A DNA stretch of 64,000 bases from Phormidesmis sp. (GTDB taxonomy: Bacteria; Cyanobacteriota; Cyanobacteriia; Leptolyngbyales; Leptolyngbyaceae), in assembly GCA_965248535.1 (NCBI GenBank), contig CBDFJR010000002.1, forward strand, positions 1,088,001 through 1,152,000, given 5' to 3'. The notes below the pieces were generated by a model, which saw nothing but the letters and a program-made list of their open reading frames with translations, made no database searches and had not been told where the DNA came from. A program made the translations under genes and the position numbers. This document shows, piece by piece, positions 1,108-48,944 of the stretch. Position 1 is the stretch's first letter. Every line of letters begins with the position of its first letter.

Positions 1108-2121
1108 ATGAAAGCTTGGGAAGTTCATGCCAACCAAGGGCTAGAGGCATTGGTGCTGGTTGATCGATCAGAGCCTCAACTCAAAGCCGGACAGGTGCTG
1201 ATCAAGATGCGTGCTTGGTCACTCAACTATCGAGACTTGCTGACGGTCAAAGGAGCCTATGGCTCTCGACAAAAACTTCCGTTCATTCCCCTGTCGGATG
1301 GGGTGGGTGAGGTGGTCGCGATCGCCGCAGGTGTGACGCGGGTCAGCGTTGGCGATCGGGTTGCCGGAATTTTTATGCAAACCTGGCGATCGGGGGAGTT
1401 GTCGGCCGAAAAATCAAAATCAGCCCTGGGCGGCGCGATCGACGGGGTGCTAGCTGAATATGTGGCCCTGCACGAAAATGGCGTTGTCCACGTTCCTGCT
1501 TATCTAACCGATGAGGAGGCGGCAACGCTTCCCTGCGCGGCTGTCACAGCCTGGCACGCGCTGATCGTGTCGGGTCAGCTAAAGCCAGGTGACACGGTTT
1601 TAACCTTGGGCACTGGGGGAGCTTCTATCTTTGCCCTTCAGTTTGCCAAACTCGTCGGCGCACGGGTGATCATTACGTCTAGCAGTGACGAAAAATTAGC
1701 GCGATCGCGCCTGCTGGGTGCCTCTGACGGCATCAACTATCTCACCACTCCTGACTGGGATCAAGCTGTTTGGAACATTACCCATAAAGTTGGCGTTGAC
1801 CATGTGGTTGAAGTGGGCGGAGCGGGCACCTTAAATCGATCTTTACGCGCTGTCAGAATGGGAGGGCAAGTGAGTTTGTTTGGGGTGTTGTCTGGCTCAC
1901 AAGGCGATATTAGCACCGTGACTATTTTGCAAAAAAATATTCGACTCCAAGGGATCTATGTGGGCAGTCGCGATATGTTTGAAGCGATGAATCGAGCGAT
2001 CGCGCTTCATCAATTGAAACCTGTGGTCGATCGGGTCTTTTTGTTTACGGAAACCCGCGAAGCTCTGCGTTATTTAGAGAGTGGTGCTCACTTTGGCAAG
2101 GTTTGTTTAAAGCTTTCATAA
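1108..2121 (+). CDS. NAD(P)-dependent alcohol dehydrogenase / quinone oxidoreductase (MDR family)
   Basis: SLNYRD, PLSDGVGEV, LPCAAVTAW, GTGG nucleotide-binding loop, HFGKV C-terminus. Confidence 0.9.
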   Translation: MKAWEVHANQGLEALVLVDRSEPQLKAGQVLIKMRAWSLNYRDLLTVKGAYGSRQKLPFIPLSDGVGEVVAIAAGVTRVSVGDRVAGIFMQTWRSGELSAEKSKSALGGAIDGVLAEYVALHENGVVHVPAYLTDEEAATLPCAAVTAWHALIVSGQLKPGDTVLTLGTGGASIFALQFAKLVGARVIITSSSDEKLARSRLLGASDGINYLTTPDWDQAVWNITHKVGVDHVVEVGGAGTLNRSLRAVRMGGQVSLFGVLSGSQGDISTVTILQKNIRLQGIYVGSRDMFEAMNRAIALHQLKPVVDRVFLFTETREALRYLESGAHFGKVCLKLS

Positions 2122-2644
2122 AGATAGAGAGCAAATCTTTGGGTCAGGGTTTACGACTTTAATTAAGACGGATAAAGTCTTGATATAGAGAGTGTAATTG
2201 GTAGAATAATGCGCTAACTTACTAGAGACCGAGAGTTTGACCTGCCTTCAAAGACTCTCATAGGCCCTACCAACTTCTACCAATCTTTCACGTTTAAACA
2301 AAGCTTTTGCAAGCGCGAAAAGGGTGCATTGACTATAACTCTCAGGGTGTAAATGTTCTCTTGGTGGATACCCCGATCGACAAGCGTTTGTTGATCCCAA
2401 GGTTTTTACACTGATCGCCATCAAAGTAGTGTGAAGCTCCTTTGTACAGTCTTATGTAGCGTTGATATAGTTAACCCGCAGTGCATCGTTGATCGGGTAT
2501 AAGGCGCTACATTGTCGTCCTGTAGATGTTTTCTCTAATCTTTTGGTTTTCGTCGTGTTGAAAAATAGCCCTATCGCAATGACTTTAAGAGTGCAGTTTT
2601 TAAGCGCCCCCCGATCTGACCGCCGTCTTTCTGGTGTTTCTGTG

Positions 2645-3658
2645 ATGAGTGATCAAACTCGAAAATCGTCTCAAAGATCTGATCTTCAGTCCAAAATTGC
2701 GGTAGGAGTGCTGGCTGGCTGGCTGATGAGCAACGTCTCAGCCCAAGCGATCGCGGCAGATCTCTCGATCGGCAATGGTGGCATCAAATTCAATCGTGAC
2801 ACCACCCTTGAGCCAAGCTTTTTAGAGTCTCATGGAGCCTACCAGTCTACGTTTGGGGTGATTAACCGTGACACCAACGAAAAGACCCCCCTACTGGTAG
2901 AAGTTAAGCCTGCTGATAGCGTTACTCCGGTGGGTCGCCCCTCGACTCGATCGAACGATCGCAGCACCCGGTTAGATTTTCTTGGCACTCCTGGAAACGC
3001 CGTCCCGCAACCGATCTCAAAATTCAAGTTTCGGGCTAACAACAACTATGTTTTCTATTTAGAATCGACCCTCAACGGTCGCCCTTCGGGAATTGTCTAC
3101 TCCACCGACACCCTCAACCCCAACAAAGAACGGCAAGTTGTTTTTGCGGGTCAACCAGCCGACCTGTGCAACCCCGGCGGGATGATGTTGGCGTGGGACG
3201 ACACTGGCTCAAAGCTGGTCAGATCTCGCCAGCAGCAAGATCGCGATTTTGATGACTTCATTGTTCGACTTCGTGATAGTGCCTGTGCACCGGGAGCAAG
3301 TGAGCCTCCGGGTGTGATAGGCAGTGGCACCTCTGGCGGCTCACTCCCCGGTGGGGCTGGTGGAGGCACTCCGGGCGGAGGGGGCGGACTGATTGGTCTA
3401 GGGTTACTAGGGGGCGCGATCGCGCTTATAGCTTCTGGTGACCATCACCACGATTCCTCTAAATCGACCTCTCCACCAGGAACCCTTCCTCCGGTGACCT
3501 CTCCACCAGGGACAACCCCTCCGGTGAAGCCGCCTGGCGGTGCTCCTCCTCCTGGAGAGCCAATTCCCACTCCCTCAACGTTTTTGGGGTCTACGATGGC
3601 GCTGGGTTTCGTTGCGTTGATGAGACGACGACAAGGCAAACGCCCGCGGAAACAATAG
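2645..3658 (+). CDS. Secreted protein with DUF4114-like motif and PEP-CTERM-like (IPTP) sorting tail
   Basis: Signal-like N-terminus, WDD...DRDFDDFIV motif, Gly/Pro-rich linker, IPTPSTFLG + TM + RRRQ tail; start codon uncertain. Confidence 0.65.
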   Translation: MSDQTRKSSQRSDLQSKIAVGVLAGWLMSNVSAQAIAADLSIGNGGIKFNRDTTLEPSFLESHGAYQSTFGVINRDTNEKTPLLVEVKPADSVTPVGRPSTRSNDRSTRLDFLGTPGNAVPQPISKFKFRANNNYVFYLESTLNGRPSGIVYSTDTLNPNKERQVVFAGQPADLCNPGGMMLAWDDTGSKLVRSRQQQDRDFDDFIVRLRDSACAPGASEPPGVIGSGTSGGSLPGGAGGGTPGGGGGLIGLGLLGGAIALIASGDHHHDSSKSTSPPGTLPPVTSPPGTTPPVKPPGGAPPPGEPIPTPSTFLGSTMALGFVALMRRRQGKRPRKQ

Positions 3659-3669
3659 GCGCAGCAGGG

Positions 3670-4089
3670 GTGATCGGGGCGATCAGTCCCCTGCTGTTAG
3701 AGATTTTGTCCTATGAGCAGCAGCTTCAATTTACGATCGATTACCCGATCAACCCCAATGACCCCAGAGAGTTGTCAGAGATTCCAGAAGTGCGCTTGTG
3801 GTTTATTCGCTGTGATGCGCTCTATCCCTGGTTGCCTTTCTTAATCGACTGGAAGGCTGGAGAGTTGGGTCGCTATACGGCGATGCTCGTGCCCCATCAG
3901 TTTCACCCCAAAGAGGGCATTCAATACAACCCAGAAGCCCTAGAGATTTTTGTGATGAGCAAGACGTTTGTGCTGATGAATTGGCTCAGGCACCAAGGCA
4001 TTGAGAGCCGATCGCGCCTCAAATCTATGACCCAGATGTTGGGCTATGAGCTAGATGACGCATTTTTTGACCTGCTAATCGAGACTTAA
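3670..4089 (+). CDS. crr6: CRR6 family NDH-1 maturation factor (DUF1817)
   Basis: DPRELSEIPEVRLWFIRCDALYPWLP and RYTAMLVPHQF..EGIQYNPEALEIF motifs. Confidence 0.85.
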   Translation: MIGAISPLLLEILSYEQQLQFTIDYPINPNDPRELSEIPEVRLWFIRCDALYPWLPFLIDWKAGELGRYTAMLVPHQFHPKEGIQYNPEALEIFVMSKTFVLMNWLRHQGIESRSRLKSMTQMLGYELDDAFFDLLIET

Positions 4090-4215
4090 TATTGGCGTGG
4101 GGAGTTTTAGAAGGCCTTCTCTAGGCTGAGTTTTAACGACTCTGGCGACGTGACGCTGAGGATTAGGCAGTGCTGGCAGGTTTCCTCATCATCGACCAAT
4201 CAACTCCGAGCTTCC

Positions 4216-6156
4216 TCACCGAGTGGTTTGCATCAGATTGAAAGCTGTATCCAGCAACGGCAACGCCCGCTCTGGCTTTTGGTTGCGGATAAAGTATTGG
4301 GCGATGTCGGTGAGTGCAGTGGCTTGAATCTCAGGTTGCTGAATTGATCGAGACATCTCAAGCGCCTTGTTAAGGCTTCTCGCATTAAGATATCCGTTGA
4401 CAACTTCTAGCCTTGCCCGTTCTTTCACTCTCAAATCACGAATAGTAGGTACGATCTCCAGAGATTTTGCAGGATTACCCACCTGAGCGTAAGCGGTTAC
4501 AACTCTGTAGAGCGCTGCGGATTGTAAATCAGTATCCCAAGATTTATCAGGAGGGGCTTCAGAGGCTTGATTCGCGAGGCTATGAATACGATCGATCAAC
4601 TGTTCAGCGCCGTTTAAATCTTTTAGTTCGCGATAGATCTCTACCGTCTCCAACATGACTCGCAATGAGTCCTCCTGAGCGTACTGGTTGCGATCGAGCT
4701 TCTCAGGAAACAGAGCAACCGCCTTGTTGAGAAACGCTAGGGCTTGGGTGCGGTTCCGCCTGCCTTGATAGAACTTTGATAACTGCATCAGTGCCCACTG
4801 TTTATCATTAGGGTCTTGAATCTGCTGGACAAGTTGAATCGCCTGCTGGTCTTTGTCGATCGATAGGTAGCTGGTTAAAACTGCTCCCATCGCTCCTTTA
4901 CTCCCTTCTCGCATCACTCGGCTATATAGCTCTGCGGAGCGTTTTTGGTTGCCCTGACGAGCATAAAGATTGGCGATGCCCAACAGCAACGCCTGCTGAT
5001 TGCTATCTCCATTTGCGAGTTGGTTTGTGAGCTTGAGCGCCTGGGTTAGATTACTAGCTCCTGCCTGATAGCTGGCAATCTCCGCGATCGCCTGGGACTG
5101 AATGCCCGCCACATTTGCAGCATATCGTGACGTGATTTTTGGGACTAGCTGAAGCGACTGAGCAAATACCTGATCCGATTTGGCTTTTTGTCCAGCTTTT
5201 TGATATCCCATCGCGACAGCAGCCAGGTATCTCACTCGATCGTCCACATCCTCAAACTTATTTGCCAATAACTCAACCCGCTTCAATGCTTGATTACGAA
5301 TCTGACGACCTTCATAACTACAAGGATCAGAACAGGTTGCAGCAATTTTGAGCAGCGCGCTGATTTGATGAGTGGACGGCTTAAGATCTTCACTGTCTCG
5401 GAGAATATCGGAGCCTTGCAAACGTTGCGCCACCTCAAAGGCATTCTGGTACTGTTGCTTCGCTAGGTAATAGCCGATTAAACTCTGGTAATTTTCATCA
5501 AGCCACCTATCGTTTCTCCTCACAAGCTGTTTGGTTGCCAGCCATCGGTCTTGCAGGGTGTTGAATTGGTCAATCATCTTCAACGCCTCGCGCAGGCGAT
5601 TTTGTTTGAGATAGGCATTGACTAGACTCTTAAACGCATCTGCCGAAAAAGAGATGTCGGTATGAGCCATTTTCGTGATGACTAGGCTTGCGGCTTCATC
5701 GACTCGATTTTGCTCCAGCAGACTTTGCACAATCCGATAGTAAGTGCTGTCTAACAAAAAGCTCTTATATTTCTGTGGAAAGGATTGAGCAATCAAGGCT
5801 TCTGCGGCTTGAGGGTTATCTTGCCAATTTGATGTTCCTGCAATCTTCGACAACAGCCGATCTTGGGCATATTGATCGAGTTTTGCTAGAGCTATCTCAA
5901 ACTTCTCCAGTTGATTAACCTGGTAGTATCCATAGGCGATGCCAACAAATGGGGAGTCTATGGATTCTATGCTCGTGAAAATGCCTCGCGCTCCAATAGC
6001 ATCTTTAGGCAGGTCAATTTGTGCCAGTTGATCCGGTGCGATAGGATAGCGTGACTGAATAAGGTCAGCCGTAGCGGCTAGCGATGTCTGATAAAACAGG
6101 GCAATATTAGGAAGACTGGCAAGCAGGACTCCGAGAAGCAGGCGACGCAACAGCAT
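4216..6156 (-). CDS. Secreted tetratricopeptide-repeat-like helical protein
   Basis: Signal peptide MLLRRLLLGVLLASL; repeated AL..IA..Y...G...KA helical units. Confidence 0.7.
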   Translation of the reverse strand: MLLRRLLLGVLLASLPNIALFYQTSLAATADLIQSRYPIAPDQLAQIDLPKDAIGARGIFTSIESIDSPFVGIAYGYYQVNQLEKFEIALAKLDQYAQDRLLSKIAGTSNWQDNPQAAEALIAQSFPQKYKSFLLDSTYYRIVQSLLEQNRVDEAASLVITKMAHTDISFSADAFKSLVNAYLKQNRLREALKMIDQFNTLQDRWLATKQLVRRNDRWLDENYQSLIGYYLAKQQYQNAFEVAQRLQGSDILRDSEDLKPSTHQISALLKIAATCSDPCSYEGRQIRNQALKRVELLANKFEDVDDRVRYLAAVAMGYQKAGQKAKSDQVFAQSLQLVPKITSRYAANVAGIQSQAIAEIASYQAGASNLTQALKLTNQLANGDSNQQALLLGIANLYARQGNQKRSAELYSRVMREGSKGAMGAVLTSYLSIDKDQQAIQLVQQIQDPNDKQWALMQLSKFYQGRRNRTQALAFLNKAVALFPEKLDRNQYAQEDSLRVMLETVEIYRELKDLNGAEQLIDRIHSLANQASEAPPDKSWDTDLQSAALYRVVTAYAQVGNPAKSLEIVPTIRDLRVKERARLEVVNGYLNARSLNKALEMSRSIQQPEIQATALTDIAQYFIRNQKPERALPLLDTAFNLMQTTR

Positions 6157-34135: not shown

Positions 34136-34210
34136 GTCCGGGTAGCCAAATGGGAAGGCAGCAGTTTGCAAAACTACTCAGCAGGGGTTCGATTCCCCTC
34201 CCGGACTCCA
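34136..34210 (+). tRNA. trnC: tRNA-Cys(GCA)
   Basis: Acceptor GTCCGGG/CCCGGAC, loop TTGCAAA, GGTTCGATTCC, U73, encoded CCA. Confidence 0.85.
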
Positions 34211-34213
34211 AAA

Positions 34214-34287
34214 TGCAGTGTCCTGACGGTCAGGATCTCGGCTCATATCCGAGACGATTCGGGGTTCGAGTCCCCGCACTGCAACCA
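34214..34287 (+). tRNA. trnM: tRNA-Met(CAT)-like with shortened D arm
   Basis: TGCAGTG/CACTGCA acceptor, CTCGG-CTCATAT-CCGAG, T arm CGGGG-TTCGAGT-CCCCG, ACCA. Confidence 0.7.
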
Positions 34288-34290
34288 CTC

Positions 34291-34364
34291 GTAGGGATGG
34301 TGTAACGGTAGCATTTCGATCTCCAAAATCGACGATTTGAGTTCAAATCTCAGTCCCTGCGCCA
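34291..34364 (+). tRNA. trnW: tRNA-Trp(CCA)
   Basis: GTAGGGA/TCCCTGC, TCGAT-CTCCAAA-ATCGA, GCCA end. Confidence 0.85.
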
Positions 34365-34378
34365 ATCAAATTAGACAC

Positions 34379-34455
34379 GGTGCTGTAGGCAAATTGGTAA
34401 AGCCACAACGCTTTCAACGTTGCGTTTGCGGGTTCAACTCCCGTCAGCACTGCCA
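34379..34455 (+). tRNA. trnE: tRNA-Glu(TTC)
   Basis: GGTGCTG/CAGCACT, CAACG-CTTTCAA-CGTTG, GCCA end. Confidence 0.85.
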
Positions 34456-34473
34456 CATCGTTAGCTCGAATTT

Positions 34474-34579
34474 GGAGCGATCGCCATCGGCAAAGCAAAT
34501 CGTTTGCTAAACGAACACCTTCGGTGAAGCGAAGCTACCGGGGTTTATGCCTCTGTGGGTTCGACTCCCGCTCTCCACC
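34474..34579 (+). tRNA. tRNA-Ser(GCT)-like element with oversized variable region (pseudogene or atypical tRNA)
   Basis: TCGT-TTGCTAA-ACGA anticodon arm, ~40-nt variable region, GGGTTCGACTCCC T arm, imperfect GGAG/CTCC acceptor. Confidence 0.5.
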
Positions 34580-34580
34580 T

Positions 34581-34653
34581 GGGACTGTAGCTGAGTTGGT
34601 TTTAGCGTCAGGTTGAAGCCCTGAAGACGCGGGTTCGATTCCTGCCATTCCCA
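34581..34653 (+). tRNA. trnF: tRNA-Phe(GAA)
   Basis: GGGACTG/CATTCCC (one mismatch), TCAGG-TTGAAGC-CCTGA, GGTTCGATTCC. Confidence 0.8.
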
Positions 34654-34674
34654 TCTCGATTGTTCGAGAATCAT

Positions 34675-34748
34675 TGCCGAGTGGACGAACTGATCAGTCG
34701 TTGTCATTCAGAGTGATAACGATGTTGGTTTGAATCCAACTTCGGCAT
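34675..34748 (+). tRNA. tRNA-like gene with CAG (Leu) anticodon and short variable loop (atypical or pseudogene)
   Basis: TGCCGAG/TTCGGCA acceptor, TGTCA-TTCAGAG-TGATA, GTTGG-TTTGAAT-CCAAC T arm. Confidence 0.55.
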
Positions 34749-34756
34749 CTCGCCTT

Positions 34757-34827
34757 TGCCCTGTGGTGTAGTGGTAGCATTTCTCACTCTGAATGAGAAG
34801 AGTCAGGTTCAAATCCTGGCGGGGCAG
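34757..34827 (+). tRNA. trnQ: tRNA-Gln(CTG)
   Basis: TGCCCTG/CGGGGCA (U1-A72), TCTCA-CTCTGAA-TGAGA, G73. Confidence 0.85.
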
Positions 34828-34885
34828 TCGGGAGGCATGAAATGTGATTGGGTCAACATTTCTATCCTCCTGTTCCTCATATTTA

Positions 34886-34959
34886 GGGTTCGTGGCTCTC
34901 ACAGGGAGAGTACTTGTTTTCCACACAAGAGATTGTGGGTTCAACTCCCACCGAATCCA
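34886..34959 (+). tRNA. trnG: tRNA-Gly(TCC)
   Basis: GGGTTCG/CGAATCC, CTTGT-TTTCCAC-ACAAG, GGTTCAACTCC. Confidence 0.75.
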
Positions 34960-36518: not shown

Positions 36519-36590
36519 TGGGGGTTACTGGACTTGAACCAGTGACATCTTGCTTGTCGAGCAAGCGCTCTACCACTGAGCTAAACCCCC
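36519..36590 (-). tRNA. trnV: tRNA-Val(GAC)
   Basis: Reverse complement GGGGGTTTAGCTCAGTGGTAGAGCG-CTTGC-TCGACAA-GCAAG...GGTTCAAGTCC...AACCCCCA. Confidence 0.9.
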
Positions 36591-43577: not shown

Positions 43578-44543
43578 TCAAGCATCCAGTGGACTAATGA
43601 CACCTCGACTACCCCGATTGAGCACATGCGTATAAATCATTGTCGTTTTGACATCTTTGTGTCCTAGTAGTTCTTGCACCGTACGAATGTCGTAGCCATT
43701 TTGCAGCAAGTGAGTCGCAAAGGAATGACGGAAAGTATGACAGCCAATTCGCTTAGTTATTCTTGAAGCCCGAACTGCTTGCTTAAGAGCTTTCTGAAGC
43801 CCACTTTCATGCAGGTGAAAGCGTTGCCAGATGGTGGTATCTGGGTCTTGAACCCGACGACTAGAAGGAAAGATCCATTGCCAAATCCACTGCCGATCGG
43901 CGTTAGGATACTTACGTGCCAGAGCAAACGGTAGCCAAACCGAGCCGAATCCCTGGTCTAAATCCTGTTGATGCAGGGTCTTTGCTTGTTGGAGATGAGT
44001 TTGGAGATCGGCGATCAGGCGCTCTGGCAGCATCGTAACGCGAGCTTTCATCCCTTTAGCGTTACGCACCATAATTTGATGTTGGTCAAAATCTAAGTCT
44101 TTGATGCGTAGAGAAAGTGCTTCATTGAGACGCATTCCACTGCCATACAGCAGTTGAATTAATAGACGATAGGTGCCGTTCATTTGGGCAATCACCGATC
44201 GTACTTCCTGGGGTGTTAGAACTGTGGGCAAGTAGGTCGATCGTTTAGCCCGAACTGCTTGAATGTCAAAGTCTAGCGTTTGATTTAGCACATCACGATA
44301 GAGAAAAAGAATCGCGTTGAAGGCTTGATTCTGGGTTGAGGCAGCAACTTTGCCTTCTACTGCCAGATGTGTCAAGAATGCTTCAATTTCTGCTTGTCCC
44401 ATTTCCCGTGGATGTCGCTTGTTGTGAAAAGCAACGTATCGCTTAATCCACTGAACATAGCTTTTTTCAGTTTGATAGGAGTAATGCTTGAGTCGAATGG
44501 TGTCCCGCACCACTTCCGATAGCATCTTGGGACGTTCATTCAT
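43578..44543 (-). CDS. intI: Integron integrase (tyrosine recombinase)
   Basis: [31 protein letters not shown], integron-specific insert [50 protein letters not shown]. Confidence 0.97.
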
Positions 44544-44613
44544 AAAAGTTTATAATTCTTCAACAAGATAATGAGTGTGATCTCATAGAATCAGAATATC
44601 TAATGAAAAGTGA

Positions 44614-44763
44614 GGGGAGATACACCGAAAGTTTCCGGGTATCTGCCCAAATCGGGGAGATATATAGAAAGTGTCGGGATATCTACCCAAATCAGGGAGA
44701 TATGCAGAAAGTGTCGGGGTATCTGCCTAAATCAGGGAGATATACGGAAACTTTCCGTATAAT
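44614..44763. repeat. Four 40-bp-period tandem units, each an imperfect palindrome (GGGAGATA..GAAA..TATCT)
   Basis: (G/A)GGGAGA starts at 44614, 44654, 44694 and 44734; the last, partial unit contains ATACGGAAACTTTCCGTAT. Confidence 0.85.
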
Positions 44764-44775
44764 CAATAGTTCCAC
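44734..44775 (+). other. attI: Putative attI, crossover G|TT at 44769/44770
   Basis: TATAATCAATAG|TTCCAC; GTTCCAC is complementary (one mismatch) to R'' GTAGAAC of the first attC, as expected for an integrated cassette. Confidence 0.6.
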
Positions 44776-44827
44776 GAGAACTGGATATAAATGTTACCCA
44801 TTGGGAACACTACATCCACCCAGTTCC

Positions 44828-44941
44828 GTAGAACATTTCGTTGGAACCGACACGCTACAAATAGTCGTAAGGTTAACCGCACTACCAACTAAAGTTGGTG
44901 TTGCTTGATTGATTTGGTGCGGTTCAACTCAATCGTTATGC
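44828..44941 (+). other. attC: attC site 1
   Basis: R'' GTAGAAC, L'' GTTGGAAC(CG) with extra base, L' (CG)GTTCAAC, R' GTTATGC. Confidence 0.75.
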
Positions 44942-45215
44942 CGCCAGCCCGACAAGCAATCAATTCGGTCTTTCAGAGTTGTCGTTCAACCGAACATCAA
45001 CGGTATTGAGAACGGGTTAGTGAATACGAAAGTCAACGTAATGCATATAAGCGATCGCGCCGACTTATCGGTGTTGACTTTAGCAAAGATACTTCGTTGA
45101 GAGTGGGAGGTGACAGGTCGCATAGGATTTAAATCCGTCCGCGAATGCCGAATTCTTCGTCTTTTGAGATGTGCGGTCTGGCGAAGTTGCGAAGCGATCG
45201 GTTGAGACGAGCAAC

Positions 45216-46002
45216 GCATAATCGGGTAACCAGGGGATTTTCTCCCCCAGTCCCCACGGCACCCCGCGTGCGGCTCCGCACGGGGCGCGTCCCCAGAAAA
45301 GTTTTAGACAAGCCAGTTCAATAGAACTGAATATCCAGGGCTGGTTGTGCAGTTAAGCGCCGACAAAATAGCTCCCCCGTTCGGGTTCATCGCCCAGTCG
45401 AGCTTTGCAACTCCTCCCTGCTTTCTAAGGTTCAGCCCTTCACCCTGTCTCACCCATTACGGTGAGTGTTTGGCTACTATGACCTCTGCTGACTTCTGCT
45501 CAATCATGAGTCCTGTTGCCATGACTCACGCTGCCTGAATGTCCTTAGGGTTCCGTGGCTCCCTAGCCGTTTCCCGCTAGACCTCAATCAGACTCCCGTA
45601 GACCCTCAGACCGCCCTTTGAGCAGATCTCCCCAGATAAGAACGTGAACTGTCTCTGCACAACTGCGTCATTTACTGTGTTCCCTGAACCAAAAGGCTTC
45701 ATGATGTTGTGCTCACTTGCCACAGGAATCTCAGCCTTCTATGACGTTTCTGTCCGTCAGCTCGCAGATTTGCCGCTGGCTTCCTTCAGACCCTTCCTCG
45801 CGGAAACGCCCTTACCTTAAGCTAGTCGTTGTCGTCACTCGGATCTTTTGGGATCATTTGGACGTTGGTTCTCCGACAGGGGACTTTCACCCCATTAGTT
45901 CACACCCATGCTGGGCGTACACAACCCGATTGGAGCGGACTGTTGTCAGATCTGGGTGAGGCTGCAAAAATCATTTACAGCCGCTCAATCGGAACGTTAT
46001 GC
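45216..46002 (+). other. attC: attC site 2, interrupted by a group II intron
   Basis: GCATA|ACAAC-CCGATTGGAGCGG...CCGCTCAATCGG-AAC-GTTATGC once the intron is removed. Confidence 0.9.
45221..45920 (-). mobile_element. ORF-less group IIC-attC intron, copy 1 (700 nt)
   Basis: Minus strand starts GTACGCCCAGCATGGG after exon TTGT; ends with domain V GCGCCCCGTGCGGAGCCGCACGCGGGGTGC and domain VI ...GGTTACCCGAT; no RT ORF. Confidence 0.9.
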
Positions 46003-46061
46003 CGCTCATCTCCTGGTGGGAACGCAGCCAGAAGCTAGTTTTTGGTGTTTAAGGTAAATAC

Positions 46062-46535
46062 ATGAACTTACAAAGCCTGAAGTGGACAAAGAACATAAAA
46101 CCAGCAGGACAAGAACCGTGGGCTTATCAGCCCTTTGAGGTTGGGAGTCTCTTTAAGTTGGCATGGAAAGATGATGAAGGTAACGCTAGCAAACCTCAAC
46201 GAGCAGACCTAATTTTGCTTAGACAGGGTGGTTATGTTACGCATCTTGTAGAAGTACTCGACGGAAAGACAGGGCGTGAAAAATGGCAAGGTAATTTCAA
46301 TATCTACCGAATTGTTGAAGTGCTCTGGGTAATTGATTGGACAAATCTGCCCATTTCTGCAAAAGCGGATGAGGTATTTGGATATTCGGTTAAAGGCTAT
46401 CAGGGCGGGGATGTGATGTTTTTGGAAACGATGCCCACTTTTCAGCAGCATTGGCAGAATCAGGGTGATTTAAGCGCATTTCAAGCGCATGTGCGGAGCC
46501 TGCTCAATCTGCCTGAAAGCGACGATAATGGATGA
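46062..46535 (+). CDS. Hypothetical cassette protein
   Basis: AAGGT RBS about 60 bp after R'; GDLILLRQ-like 'ADLILLRQGGYVTHLVEVLD'. Confidence 0.7.
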   Translation: MNLQSLKWTKNIKPAGQEPWAYQPFEVGSLFKLAWKDDEGNASKPQRADLILLRQGGYVTHLVEVLDGKTGREKWQGNFNIYRIVEVLWVIDWTNLPISAKADEVFGYSVKGYQGGDVMFLETMPTFQQHWQNQGDLSAFQAHVRSLLNLPESDDNG

Positions 46536-46567
46536 AGTGTAGTTTTAATCTTCTGAGTGGGGTAGCG

Positions 46568-46786
46568 ATGACTGAGTTACTAGAGTGCGCTATTGCTAGG
46601 CTGCAAGCCTTGCCCGAAAGCGAACAGAACGCGATCGCTTCAATAATCTTGGATGAGATTAAAGACGATCGCCGCTGGGATGAAGCATTTTCGCGTTCGC
46701 CAGATATTCTTGCAAAACTTGCAGCTTCCGCAATGGCTGAGTACCGCGCAGGTAAGACTGAAGAACTTGACCCAGAGACATTGTGA
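46568..46786 (+). CDS. Putative antitoxin
   Basis: MTELLECAIARLQALPESEQNAIA...WDEAF...; GTGA overlap with a RelE-like toxin. Confidence 0.7.
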   Translation: MTELLECAIARLQALPESEQNAIASIILDEIKDDRRWDEAFSRSPDILAKLAASAMAEYRAGKTEELDPETL

Positions 46787-47052
46787 AGTCACGCACTACT
46801 AAAGAGTTTCGTAAATTATTCGCCAAATTACCCAAACAGGTTCAAGAGCAAACCCGTACGGCATATCGTCAGTTTAAGGAAGACCCAAGCTACCCAGGTC
46901 TTCGTTTTAAGAAGGTGCATCCAGAGTTGCCAATTTACTCTGCTCGCATTAACAAAAGCTATCGAGCGGTAGGTCAATTGGATGAAGATACAGTGATTTG
47001 GTTTTGGGTTGGTTCACACGCAGAGTACGACAGGTTGCTAGAGCAGTTATAG
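46783..47052 (+). CDS. RelE/ParE-superfamily toxin
   Basis: TKEFRKLFAKLP, DPSYPGLRFKKV, YSARINKSYRAVG, WFWVGSHAEYD. Confidence 0.8.
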   Translation: MKSRTTKEFRKLFAKLPKQVQEQTRTAYRQFKEDPSYPGLRFKKVHPELPIYSARINKSYRAVGQLDEDTVIWFWVGSHAEYDRLLEQL

Positions 47053-47059
47053 TAGCGCG

Positions 47060-47146
47060 GCATAACAATTCAAATGCAGCGGACGGTCGAGAGTCGCTGA
47101 CGCTGAGTTCAAGGGTATCTGCCGCCGCTGATTTGAGCCGTTATGC
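47060..47146 (+). other. attC: attC site 3 (intact)
   Basis: GCATAAC-AAT-TCAAATGCAGCGG...CCGCTGATTTGA-GCC-GTTATGC. Confidence 0.92.
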
Positions 47147-47246
47147 GGCTTGCTTTGTTGGTTATGGCGGGGTTTAGAGGTGATCTGTGAGACGATTGAG
47201 CATCAGCGCGTTCAGGTTAACGAAGTGGTTGCTGAGGTTGAAATCA

Positions 47247-47519
47247 ATGCTTTATATGGTCATCGAGTATTTCAATGCAGGAGCGGCTGTTGATATTTAC
47301 CGTCGTGTCCGCGATCGGGGTCGTCAATTGCCACCCGGTCTTGAGTATGTAGACAGTTGGGTAGATTTAGACTATTTCCGGTGCTTCCAACTGATGCGAA
47401 CGGATGACCGAGACTTGTTCGAGGTTTGGATCGAAGCTTGGAGCGATCTCGGTCATTTTGAAATCATTCCAGTGAGGACTTCGGCAGAGGCTGCTCAACA
47501 TATTGCGGATAAACTCTAG
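47247..47519 (+). CDS. DUF3303 family protein
   Basis: MLYMVIEYF...YRR.RDRGRQLPPGLEYVDSWV...CFQLM...WSDL..FEIIPV. Confidence 0.8.
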   Translation: MLYMVIEYFNAGAAVDIYRRVRDRGRQLPPGLEYVDSWVDLDYFRCFQLMRTDDRDLFEVWIEAWSDLGHFEIIPVRTSAEAAQHIADKL

Positions 47520-47592
47520 AAGTATTCTCTGTCTGCGGCAGAAAGAGGTTTCGGTATAATGTTAGGTAGATATTTTTCCCTCATAGCCTTTT

Positions 47593-47817
47593 ATGAATTA
47601 TCAAGACATCATTACGATCGAGCCTGGAAAGCGCAGTGGCAAGCCATGTATTCGGGGAATGCGAATCACCGTGTACGATATCTTGGAATATCTGGCAGGT
47701 GGAATGACCGAAGCAGAAATTCTGGAAGATTTTTCTGAACTCACCTCAGAAGATATCAAAGCTTGTCTTGCTTTTGCGGCCGATCGTGAGAAGAAGTTGT
47801 TTGTGCCATCGCTGTGA
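47593..47817 (+). CDS. DUF433 antitoxin (VapB45-like)
   Basis: GKPCIRGMRITVYDIL..LAGGMTEAEILEDF.ELT.EDI.ACL.FA. Confidence 0.9.
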   Translation: MNYQDIITIEPGKRSGKPCIRGMRITVYDILEYLAGGMTEAEILEDFSELTSEDIKACLAFAADREKKLFVPSL

Positions 47818-48146
47818 AACTGCTTTTGGATGAAAATCTCTCAGACCGGATTGTTTACAAGATTATCGATTTGTATCCTAGTTCTGAGCATGTCAAAACC
47901 TTGGCACTTACGAATACTGATGATGGCATCATTTGGCAATACGCAAAAGCAAATGACTTTGTGATTGTTTCCAAAGATTCTGACTTTCATCAGCGTAGTT
48001 TGCTGTATGGTCATCCACCCAAGTTTATTTATCTTCAGGTTGGTAATTGTCCAACATCAAAAATTATTCAGATTTTGAGAGACAATTTTGACACGATTAG
48101 TCAGTTTGGAGATCGAGAATCAGAAAGTATATTAGTGTTGGCGTAG
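47814..48146 (+). CDS. DUF5615 PIN-like toxin (VapC45-like)
   Basis: MKLLLDENLS, DDGIIWQYA, IVSKDSDF, GHPPK. Confidence 0.9.
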   Translation: MKLLLDENLSDRIVYKIIDLYPSSEHVKTLALTNTDDGIIWQYAKANDFVIVSKDSDFHQRSLLYGHPPKFIYLQVGNCPTSKIIQILRDNFDTISQFGDRESESILVLA

Positions 48147-48158
48147 TGTGAAACCGCA

Positions 48159-48944
48159 GCATAATCGGGTAACCAGGGGATTTTCTCCCCCAGTCCCCAC
48201 GGCACCCCGCGTGCGGCTCCGCACGGGGCGCGTCCCCAGAAAAGTTTTAGACAAGCCAGTTCAATAGAACTGAATATCCAGGGCTGGTTGTGCAGTTAAG
48301 CGCCGACAAAATAGCTCCCCCGTTCGGGTTCATCGCCCAGTCGAGCTTTGCAACTCCTCCCTGCTTTCTAAGGTTCAGCCCTTCACCCTGTCTCACCCAT
48401 TACGGTGAGTGTTTGGCTACTATGACCTCTGCTGACTTCTGCTCAATCATGAGTCCTGTTGCCATGACTCACGCTGCCTGAATGTCCTTAGGGTTCCGTG
48501 GCTCCCTAGCCGTTTCCCGCTAGACCTCAATCAGACTCCCGTAGACCCTCAGACCGCCCTTTGAGCAGATCTCCCCAGATAAGAACGTGAACTGTCTCTG
48601 CACAACTGCGTCATTTACTGTGTTCCCTGAACCAAAAGGCTTCATGATGTTGTGCTCACTTGCCACAGGAATCTCAGCCTTCTATGACGTTTCTGTCCGT
48701 CAGCTCGCAGATTTGCCGCTGGCTTCCTTCAGACCCTTCCTCGCGGAAACGCCCTTACCTTAAGCTAGTCGTTGTCGTCACTCGGATCTTTTGGGATCAT
48801 TTGGACGTTGGTTCTCCGACAGGGGACTTTCACCCCATTAGTTCACACCCATGCTGGGCGTACACAACCCCAATGCAGCGGACGAACAGAATCTTCGCGC
48901 TTCGTTTTAATCATCTCTATCGCCGCTGATTGGGAACGTTAGCC
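48159..48944 (+). other. attC: attC site 4, interrupted by a group II intron
   Basis: GCATA|ACAAC-CCCAATGCAGCGG...CCGCTGATTGGG-AAC-GTTAGCC. Confidence 0.9.
48164..48863 (-). mobile_element. ORF-less group IIC-attC intron, copy 2 (700 nt, apparently identical to copy 1)
   Basis: Same ends, same length and same internal text as 45221-45920; same insertion point in R''. Confidence 0.9.

Follow-up and report, generated by a model that had tools for sequence, protein, structure and literature searches.

Two intron copies in an integron of Phormidesmis sp.

The stretch of DNA analyzed here (the window) is 64,000 nucleotides (nt) of contig CBDFJR010000002.1, positions 1,088,001 to 1,152,000 of the forward strand, from the assembly GCA_965248535.1 of the cyanobacterium Phormidesmis sp. 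It contains an integron, in which an IntI-type integrase gene is followed by cassettes bounded by three attC sites on the plus strand (45216-46002, 47060-47146 and 48159-48944). The first and the third attC are each split by a copy of a 700-nt group II intron without an open reading frame (ORF) for a reverse transcriptase (RT)/maturase, and the second is intact. Two of the three attC sites of the genome's only integrase-linked array are therefore occupied. We call this element the mini-intron, and the coordinates of the features are collected in Table 1.

Sequence comparison showed an exact identical run of 712 nt (45216-45927 and 48159-48870). It consists of the 700-nt element, 5 nt of attC (GCATA) and 7 nt of attC (ACAACCC), beyond which the flanks of the two copies are unrelated. 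Both copies are inserted at bottom-strand TTGT/T in R'' (the slash marks the insertion point), antisense to the cassettes. The L-box hairpin is retained in both 5' exons, and TTGT/T lies 5 nt past the L-box stem. These results confirmed the initial annotation, which had placed two identical 700-nt copies on the minus strand, in two different attC sites and at one and the same position of each. Its proposal that the attC at 47060 is a free target also stands: when folded, the bottom strand of this intact site shows an R box, then a spacer, and an L box, with bulged bases, and it reads TTGT/TATGC. The change of the R'' triplet from AAC to CAC upon insertion is true at the sequence level. In the 7 bases preceding AACCC, GCATAAC becomes CGTACAC, and the R box is lost from the folded 5' exon. 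Insertion may thereby inactivate the attC site and lock neighbouring cassettes together. Read by eye, the intron 5' end (45914-45927 and 48857-48870) resembles a displaced R'' half: the bottom strand is GT-G-TACGC versus the original GT-TATGC, and 6 of 7 positions agree if the extra G is bulged. The R box might partly re-form at the intron 5' junction.

The ribozyme domains were analyzed with Rfam. A whole-window scan matched both copies on the minus strand to RF02001 (part of domain I; 127.8 bits, gathering cut-off 32) and RF01998 (63.7 bits, gathering cut-off 35), domain III (D3) being among the matched parts. The match to RF00029, which covers domains V and VI (DV and DVI), reached 43.5 bits (gathering cut-off 40); it surfaced only when both copies were scanned locally by E-value, and the gathering scan of the whole window did not return it. 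The intron RNA starts with GUACGCCC and ends with CCCGAU. In the alignment of ORF-less members described below, the DV helix (helix 35) has 12 pairs, of which 2 show compensatory change, with 100% of cells paired; the DVI helix (helix 36) has 13 pairs, 5 of them with compensatory change. The bulged A of DVI is RNA position 694, 7 nt from the 3' end. The candidate exon-binding site 1 (EBS1), which had been annotated at the position given in Table 1, was found within the loop GCACAACA. All 12 aligned sequences have this loop unchanged, and its stem (helix 15) covaries at 2 of 4 pairs. The CGC triad of DV, the bulged A of DVI, the AU end and the lack of an RT in domain IV hold as first described. 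Only the 2-nt bulge of DV had to be corrected: it had been given as CG and is AC when aligned to the Rfam DV consensus.

On the intron strand, no ORF of >=60 amino acids (aa) lies wholly inside the element and no RT is encoded there. A simple scan of 44550-46100 found no outward sigma-70-like promoter, such as that of the attC intron S.ma.I2, inside the element. Since the sole site (45943-45971) is outside the intron and no better than chance (shuffle mean 1.5), an outward promoter (Pout) within the intron was rejected. A CRISPR-DR12 match at 46001-46028 (E 0.044, below gathering), at the R' end of attC 1 and just past it, was treated as chance.

The mini-intron itself has no RT, and the class C test was made on the RTs of related full-length introns (cognate RTs). 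The RT of the full-length relative in this genome carries RVT_1 and GIIM. An intact 444-aa relative of it has RVT_1 and GIIM only, with no endonuclease domain, as in class C. The best match among solved RTs in the PDB was GsI-IIC (331 bits), and solved class C RTs (GsI-IIC, and 7uim at 260 bits) scored far above those of classes IIA or IIB (LtrA at 82 and the T.el RT at 74). The cognate RT shares 53% identity with the RT encoded by an intron of a Serratia marcescens class 1 integron on plasmid CP083755.1, located antisense between blaIMP-26 and qacEdelta1. This intron and the mini-intron share the 5' end GTACGCCCAGCATGGG, a 30-nt DV with a CGC triad and a GAGC loop, and the target ttgt/t. As with class C introns in general, a DNA hairpin precedes the insertion point by a few bases, and intron-binding site 1 (IBS1) is short. 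According to Sonbol and Siam 2021 (PMC7923331) and Leon et al. 2010 (PMC3001079), antisense insertion at TTGT/T in R'' of the attC bottom strand marks the IIC-attC lineage. By target, RT identity and shared ribozyme ends, membership in this lineage is supported, as is the assignment of the two elements as ORF-less group II ribozymes of the IIC-attC type.

Table 1. Features of the integron and of the mini-intron copies, in positions of the window
Feature	Position	Strand	Evidence
ORF-less group IIC-attC intron copy 1 (700 nt)	45221..45920	-	Rfam RF02001, RF01998, RF00029; 100% identical to five other genome copies
ORF-less group IIC-attC intron copy 2 (700 nt)	48164..48863	-	100% identical to copy 1
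Candidate EBS1 (ACAAC) in loop GCACAACA (RNA 209-216)	45706..45710	-	complementary to 5' exon GTTGT
Domain IV stub (RNA 487-628): Shine-Dalgarno-like GGAGGAG and first ~15 codons of lost RT ORF	45293..45434	-	comparison with full-length relatives
Domain V, copy 1: 30 nt, CGC triad, AC bulge, 3-bp upper helix, GAGC loop	45259..45288	-	RF00029 alignment; covariation
Domain VI, copy 1, with bulged branch-point A at 45227	45224..45255	-	covariation; A invariant in 12/12 sequences
R'' left 5 nt (GCATA) of attC 1 = 3' exon of copy 1	45216..45220	+	flank comparison; intact paralogue GGGTTGT/TATGCGTTGCT
Rest of attC 1 (R'' AC, L'', loop, L', R' GTTATGC) = 5' exon hairpin of copy 1	45921..46002	+	nhmmer attC profile E 1.2e-15; single-stranded DNA fold z -2.95
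attC 2, intact, unoccupied	47060..47146	+	best attC profile match, E 2.3e-19; single-stranded DNA fold z -3.09
R'' left 5 nt of attC 3 = 3' exon of copy 2	48159..48163	+	flank comparison
Rest of attC 3 = 5' exon hairpin of copy 2	48864..48944	+	attC profile E 3.6e-12; single-stranded DNA fold z -2.66
intI integron integrase gene (321 aa)	43578..44543	-	NCBIfam TIGR02249 466 bits vs cut-off 265; Pfam Phage_integrase and Phage_int_SAM_4
First cassette, ~270 nt, without convincing ORF	44944..45215	+	three-locus paralogue alignment

Further copies, empty sites and relatives in other genomes

The initial annotation had proposed a search for further copies in the genome (5.03 Mb in 5 contigs, 99.76% complete; G000). 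Eight ORF-less copies were found. Six are 100% identical and lie on two contigs with differing flanks. The seventh is 98.6% identical and decayed: its 5' junction is damaged, and it has four small deletions. The eighth, of 698 nt and at the target ATGT/T, is 85% identical. There is also a 130-nt internal fragment of the intron. One full-length relative of 1998 nt (C2:1673018-1675015) is 79% identical over positions 1-447 (D1-D3). All copies are in attC bottom strands, each between flanks of its own, and the target is TTGT/T for 6/6 identical copies and for the full-length intron.

An attC profile was built from 9 attC sites. With this profile, 36 attC-like sites were detected at E <=0.02, the 9 training sites included; they are dispersed genome-wide as integrase-less clusters and singletons. 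Eight are occupied, and 22 of the 28 free sites read TTGT/T (counted by eye). The first cassette, left of copy 1, has two paralogues elsewhere. One bears the full-length intron at the same position (adjoining C2:1675016). The other, C2:2140700-2140788, is uninterrupted (GGGTTGT-TATGCGTTGCT) and provides an empty-site control for the exact boundaries.

Two identical 700-nt stretches just 2.9 kb apart might come from a segmental DNA duplication or an assembly error that made the second copy. However, the identity extends only 5 and 7 nt beyond the element, over conserved bases of attC, the six identical copies lie on two contigs in unrelated flanks, and 9 other genomes have related copies inserted at this position of attC-like hairpins. 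DNA-level duplication and mis-assembly, which the initial annotation had named as grounds for abandoning its reading, are excluded by the unrelated flanks together with the intron-free paralogous site, and we give an artefact next to no credence. The mini-intron has been inserted independently multiple times.

Full-length ORF-less relatives (~77-90% identical) were detected in 10 further genomes of the same family (G106, G109, G097, G010, G007, G076, G015, G014, G092 and G086) among the 89 others searched, and in one genome of another family (G047). The domain IV motif was also used for a scan of 185,579 species genomes. It was found in 12 stretches, all from Leptolyngbyaceae-type cyanobacteria (Leptolyngbya, Stenomitos, Phormidesmis, Oculatella, Kovacikia and Pantanalinema); since only exact matches were scanned, this count is a lower bound. 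G010 has 9 full-length copies with 0-4 scattered single differences, in 9 different attC-like hairpins at NGT/T, and the pairing with IBS1 varies from 2 to 5 bp across the 9 sites. Three more copies in G010 are truncated at the 5' end, and their 3' ends are exact.

We aligned 12 ORF-less members, taken from 10 genomes of the Leptolyngbyaceae type; two copies cut by contig ends or by a nested intron were excluded. RNAalifold predicted 210 pairs, of which 58 show compensatory change versus 30.5 in shuffles (0 of 500 reached this value); slid controls gave 10-20. In addition, 97.7% of cells were paired, versus 92.0% in shuffles (again 0 of 500). Because the structure was predicted from the same alignment as was used for the test, these values favour structure. 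With this bias, they show purifying selection across genera on the predicted RNA structure.

Among the intervals measured, conservation is highest in the core of the domain IV stub (alignment columns 594-644), with a mean pairwise identity of 0.90; the values for DV and domain I are 0.88 and 0.85. This core corresponds to GGAGGAG and CGAUGAACCCGRAYGGGGGAG, which match the ribosome-binding site and RT codons 1-15 of full-length cyanobacterial relatives. A residual domain IV ORF of 28-32 codons is open in several members, and an indel shifts its frame between copies (read by eye). A peptide was therefore set aside, and the residual ORF is read as conservation at the RNA level. The same stub is common to the identical copies, the 85% copy in the same genome and the copies in 9 other genomes. 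This supports the earlier proposal that the ORF was lost before the copies spread, and by this comparison the ORF-less form has an old shared origin.

The copies have also to be considered as old immobile relics, that is, ancient insertions kept identical by gene conversion, which would at most splice or would be inert. As is generally known, repeat identity in a polyploid, recombination-proficient cyanobacterium need not imply recent movement; moreover, the RT gene of this genome is broken (see below), and a decayed copy and an internal fragment are present. However, the scattered differences among the G010 copies are unlike the uniformity expected from conversion, and the 85% copy coexists unconverted in the Phormidesmis genome. 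The selection on the RNA structure and the TTGT/T of most free attC-like sites, with an occupancy far below saturation, also argue against relics. We consider this explanation unlikely.

Two observations were made on the relatives. In G097 (L073, C108), one ORF-less relative lies behind a hairpin that does not look like attC (gtttaggcaa...ttgcctaaac), followed by ctgt/t. This case illustrates that class C introns in general land behind any stem-loop. In two other genomes, a twintron was found (L094, G109:C1:128500-133100, ~1569-4387, minus strand; and L049, G007:C509), in which another group II intron interrupts an ORF-less IIC-attC copy (positions 1-662) between DV and DVI. The inner intron starts with GTGCG and encodes a 527-aa RT (RVT_N, RVT_1 and GIIM), whose C-terminus looks HNH-like by eye. 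It contains a DV-DVI of its own (RF00029, 49.9 bits) and is followed by the outer DVI and ...CCCGAT.

Source of the reverse transcriptase

We investigated which RT might act on the mini-intron. Above cut-off, RVT_1 was matched at two loci of the genome and GIIM at one. The second RVT_1 locus is retron-like by its best NCBIfam matches, all of which are below cut-offs. The initial annotation had called for a full-length IIC donor in the genome. Such an intron exists (the 1998-nt relative), but its ribozyme is 79% identical, its RT gene is frameshifted and there is no other group II RT.

The broken RT gene consists of ORFs of 172 and 325 aa. At the break (L011 1360-1507 = G000:C2:1673801-1673948), within the RT finger motifs, a stretch of 79 nt is repeated imperfectly in tandem, the second unit being a 68-nt copy with 85% identity. 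Such a repeat could arise in one step by template switching. The RT pieces cover residues 1-151 and 119-443 of the intact 444-aa relative. As the 325-codon piece is still open and is 89% identical to the intact relative, the sequence suggests that the break is recent.

Intact cognate RTs (>=69% identity, residues 1-443, no stop) were detected in 5 of 90 family genomes (G018, G102, G035, G074 and G016). G035 has merely a 5'-truncated ORF-less remnant beside its intact RT. In the genomes that carry ORF-less copies, the cognate RT genes are frameshifted, interrupted, stop-bearing or not found; in G010, for example, the gene is in two parts ~8 kb apart and has a TGA stop. The count of carriers and RTs is weakened by fragmented assemblies; G000 (5 contigs), G010 (3) and G109 (9), however, are contiguous.

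We think it probable that the mini-intron is a non-autonomous retroelement, which reverse-splices into the attC bottom strand and depends on a cognate class C RT supplied in trans by a resident donor that has since been disrupted or lost. The element has lost nearly all of the RT/maturase gene and kept ribozyme domains I-VI, together with a structured domain IV stub that holds the ribosome-binding site and the first ~15 codons. Its RNA would recognise the single-stranded attC bottom strand through the L-box hairpin, and EBS1 (ACAAC) would pair with GTTGT, plus one base pair with the following T. Reverse splicing would then take place between TTGT and T inside R'', and the cognate class C RT would make the DNA copy in trans. 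As the cognate RT is no longer intact in the genome, the six identical copies are best explained by a burst of copying that would have stopped with the disruption or loss of the resident donor's RT.

In group II introns that have been studied well, the region of the stub (DIVa) is where the intron-encoded protein primarily binds. It is likely that the trans-acting RT would bind the conserved domain IV stub. Since it is both the most conserved interval and homologous to the ORF start, we count it in favour of an RT in trans. The 9 near-identical copies of G010 in 9 hairpins, along with its 3 truncated ones, and the intact cognate RTs in 5 of 90 family genomes also speak for this mechanism.

Several results weigh against it. 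The frameshifted gene is the only group II RT gene in the genome, and no intact group II RT was found in an assembly that is nearly complete and in few contigs. Over D1-D3, the ribozyme of the resident full-length intron matches the mini-intron at just 79% identity. Eleven genomes of the family carry a full-length ORF-less copy, and an intact cognate RT was found in none of them. The 5'-truncated copies of G010 might be taken as proof of reverse transcription, and we set them aside as ambiguous: their upstream flanks are not attC, so that later deletion is as likely as incomplete cDNA synthesis. Finally, four of 22 listed sequencing runs were examined, all four as contigs, and these contigs showed no transcription, splicing or mobility of the copies. 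In a DNA-like run (X1), a contig joins 45220 to 45921, with 11 differences from the window and a 3-nt gap; this joint was tentatively attributed to the intron-free paralogue. The same joint (45220 to 45921) occurs in the metatranscriptome X10, where it is indistinguishable from an empty site, possibly in a relative. Relatives of the intron were also detected in the metatranscriptome runs X9 and X10, with DNA carry-over possible.

The lack of an intact group II RT, here and in the 11 carriers, together with copies that are nevertheless identical or nearly so, is consistent with an RT-independent mode like that of the ORF-less class C ribozymes called HYERs. The ribozyme would reverse-splice into attC hairpins, or cut them hydrolytically, without an intron-encoded protein, and a host polymerase, the retron-type RT or repair would fix it in the DNA. 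PMC11754743 and PMC12990946 describe ORF-less IIC introns as DNA-cleaving ribozymes. In contrast, the most conserved interval of the mini-intron is an ORF remnant, as continued dependence on the cognate protein predicts. The branch-point A is invariant and DVI covaries, which suggests that the lariat chemistry has been kept, and broken RT genes adjoin copies in several carriers, which indicates that donors existed. On this balance, an RT-independent mode seems improbable to us. We are equally doubtful of its wider form, in which an ORF-less IIC-attC lineage amplifies in Leptolyngbyaceae without a cognate RT, as a protein-independent mobile RNA with the attC hairpin as landing pad and host enzymes for fixation. 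If true, a protein-independent lineage would progressively split the recombination sites of sedentary integrons.

The genome is a compact natural system for the question of how ORF-less bacterial group II introns multiply. It offers six identical copies, a frameshifted cognate RT, 22 free TTGT/T targets and an intron-free paralogue, and intact RTs are available in relatives. Trans-mobilisation by a cognate RT and RT-free propagation are directly comparable with these materials. Its interest lies in this clean test bed, and in the fact that no carrier genome examined has an intact cognate RT. Furthermore, if the split attC sites are dead, insertion would be a route for chromosomal integrons to become fixed cassette arrays.

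Neighbouring genes and comparison with known systems

The cassette genes include a pair with a ParE-like toxin and a DUF433/DUF5615 pair. The cassettes at 46532-47052 and 47593-48146 each have an extra gene followed by a toxin-antitoxin-like pair (84-aa ORF and ParE-like toxin in one, DUF433 and DUF5615 in the other), that is, three ORFs each versus the usual one. The first cassette has a 77-aa minus-strand ORF without a Pfam match, and no Rfam match; this ORF-poor cassette of ~270 nt may supply a non-coding RNA or a promoter. The interval from intI to the first cassette contains three tandem 40-nt repeats (44614-44733), 83% identical to the first and each internally palindromic, which may belong to the attI or promoter region. 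Elsewhere in the window, Rfam detected seven tRNA genes within ~830 nt (34136-34959, plus strand) and another 1.6 kb away (36519-36590, minus strand).

The kind of element is already known, from IIC-attC introns on the one hand and from ORF-less IIC or HYER introns on the other. Our literature search found nothing specific on ORF-less attC introns, cyanobacterial attC introns or Leptolyngbya integrons, and the HYER study may already list this lineage. A 2015 review states that ORF-less bacterial introns are rare and usually occur alongside related RT-encoding introns (PMC4424553).

Like IIC-attC introns of the S.ma.I2 type, as described in PMC3001079 and PMC7923331, the mini-intron is a class C ribozyme at bottom-strand TTGT/T, antisense to the cassettes. 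It resembles the S. marcescens intron of CP083755.1 in its 5' end GUACGCCCAGCAUGGG and its 30-nt DV with the CGC triad. As is reported for IIC-attC introns, it also occurs in attC clusters without an integrase. Unlike them, it has no RT/maturase ORF (700 nt versus ~1.95-2.0 kb), is multi-copy in one chromosome and has a Leptolyngbyaceae-type cyanobacterial host, not a proteobacterium. Unlike S.ma.I2, it has no internal outward promoter by the simple scan.

HYERs were reportedly described by Liu et al. in Science in 2024 as ORF-less group IIC introns in multiple copies in their resident genomes. A multi-copy ORF-less class C intron is also what we found, with eight copies here and 9 full-length and 3 truncated copies in G010. 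Unlike HYERs as described, to which it is likened by description and not by sequence, the mini-intron has integron attC as its target and a conserved branch-point A. It shares with them a class C ribozyme without an intron-encoded protein and a size of ~0.6-0.7 kb, as given in PMC11754743 and PMC12990946.

The mini-intron is similar to MITEs, the non-autonomous offshoots of DNA transposons, in that the enzyme gene is deleted internally, the cis parts are kept and the copies outnumber the autonomous parent. Unlike MITEs, it is RNA-mediated, and the analogy is functional only.

The ORF-less group II introns of Thermosynechococcus elongatus are IIB-type and home into specific sequences, with intact donor RTs in the genome. 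The mini-intron differs from them in its class (IIC), its DNA-hairpin target and the lack of an intact donor. The likeness is in the mode of spread: the T. elongatus introns are reportedly mobilised in trans (Mohr et al. 2010, PMC2882425), and there, as here, ORF-less derivatives have proliferated in a cyanobacterial genome and are presumed to use the RT of related introns.

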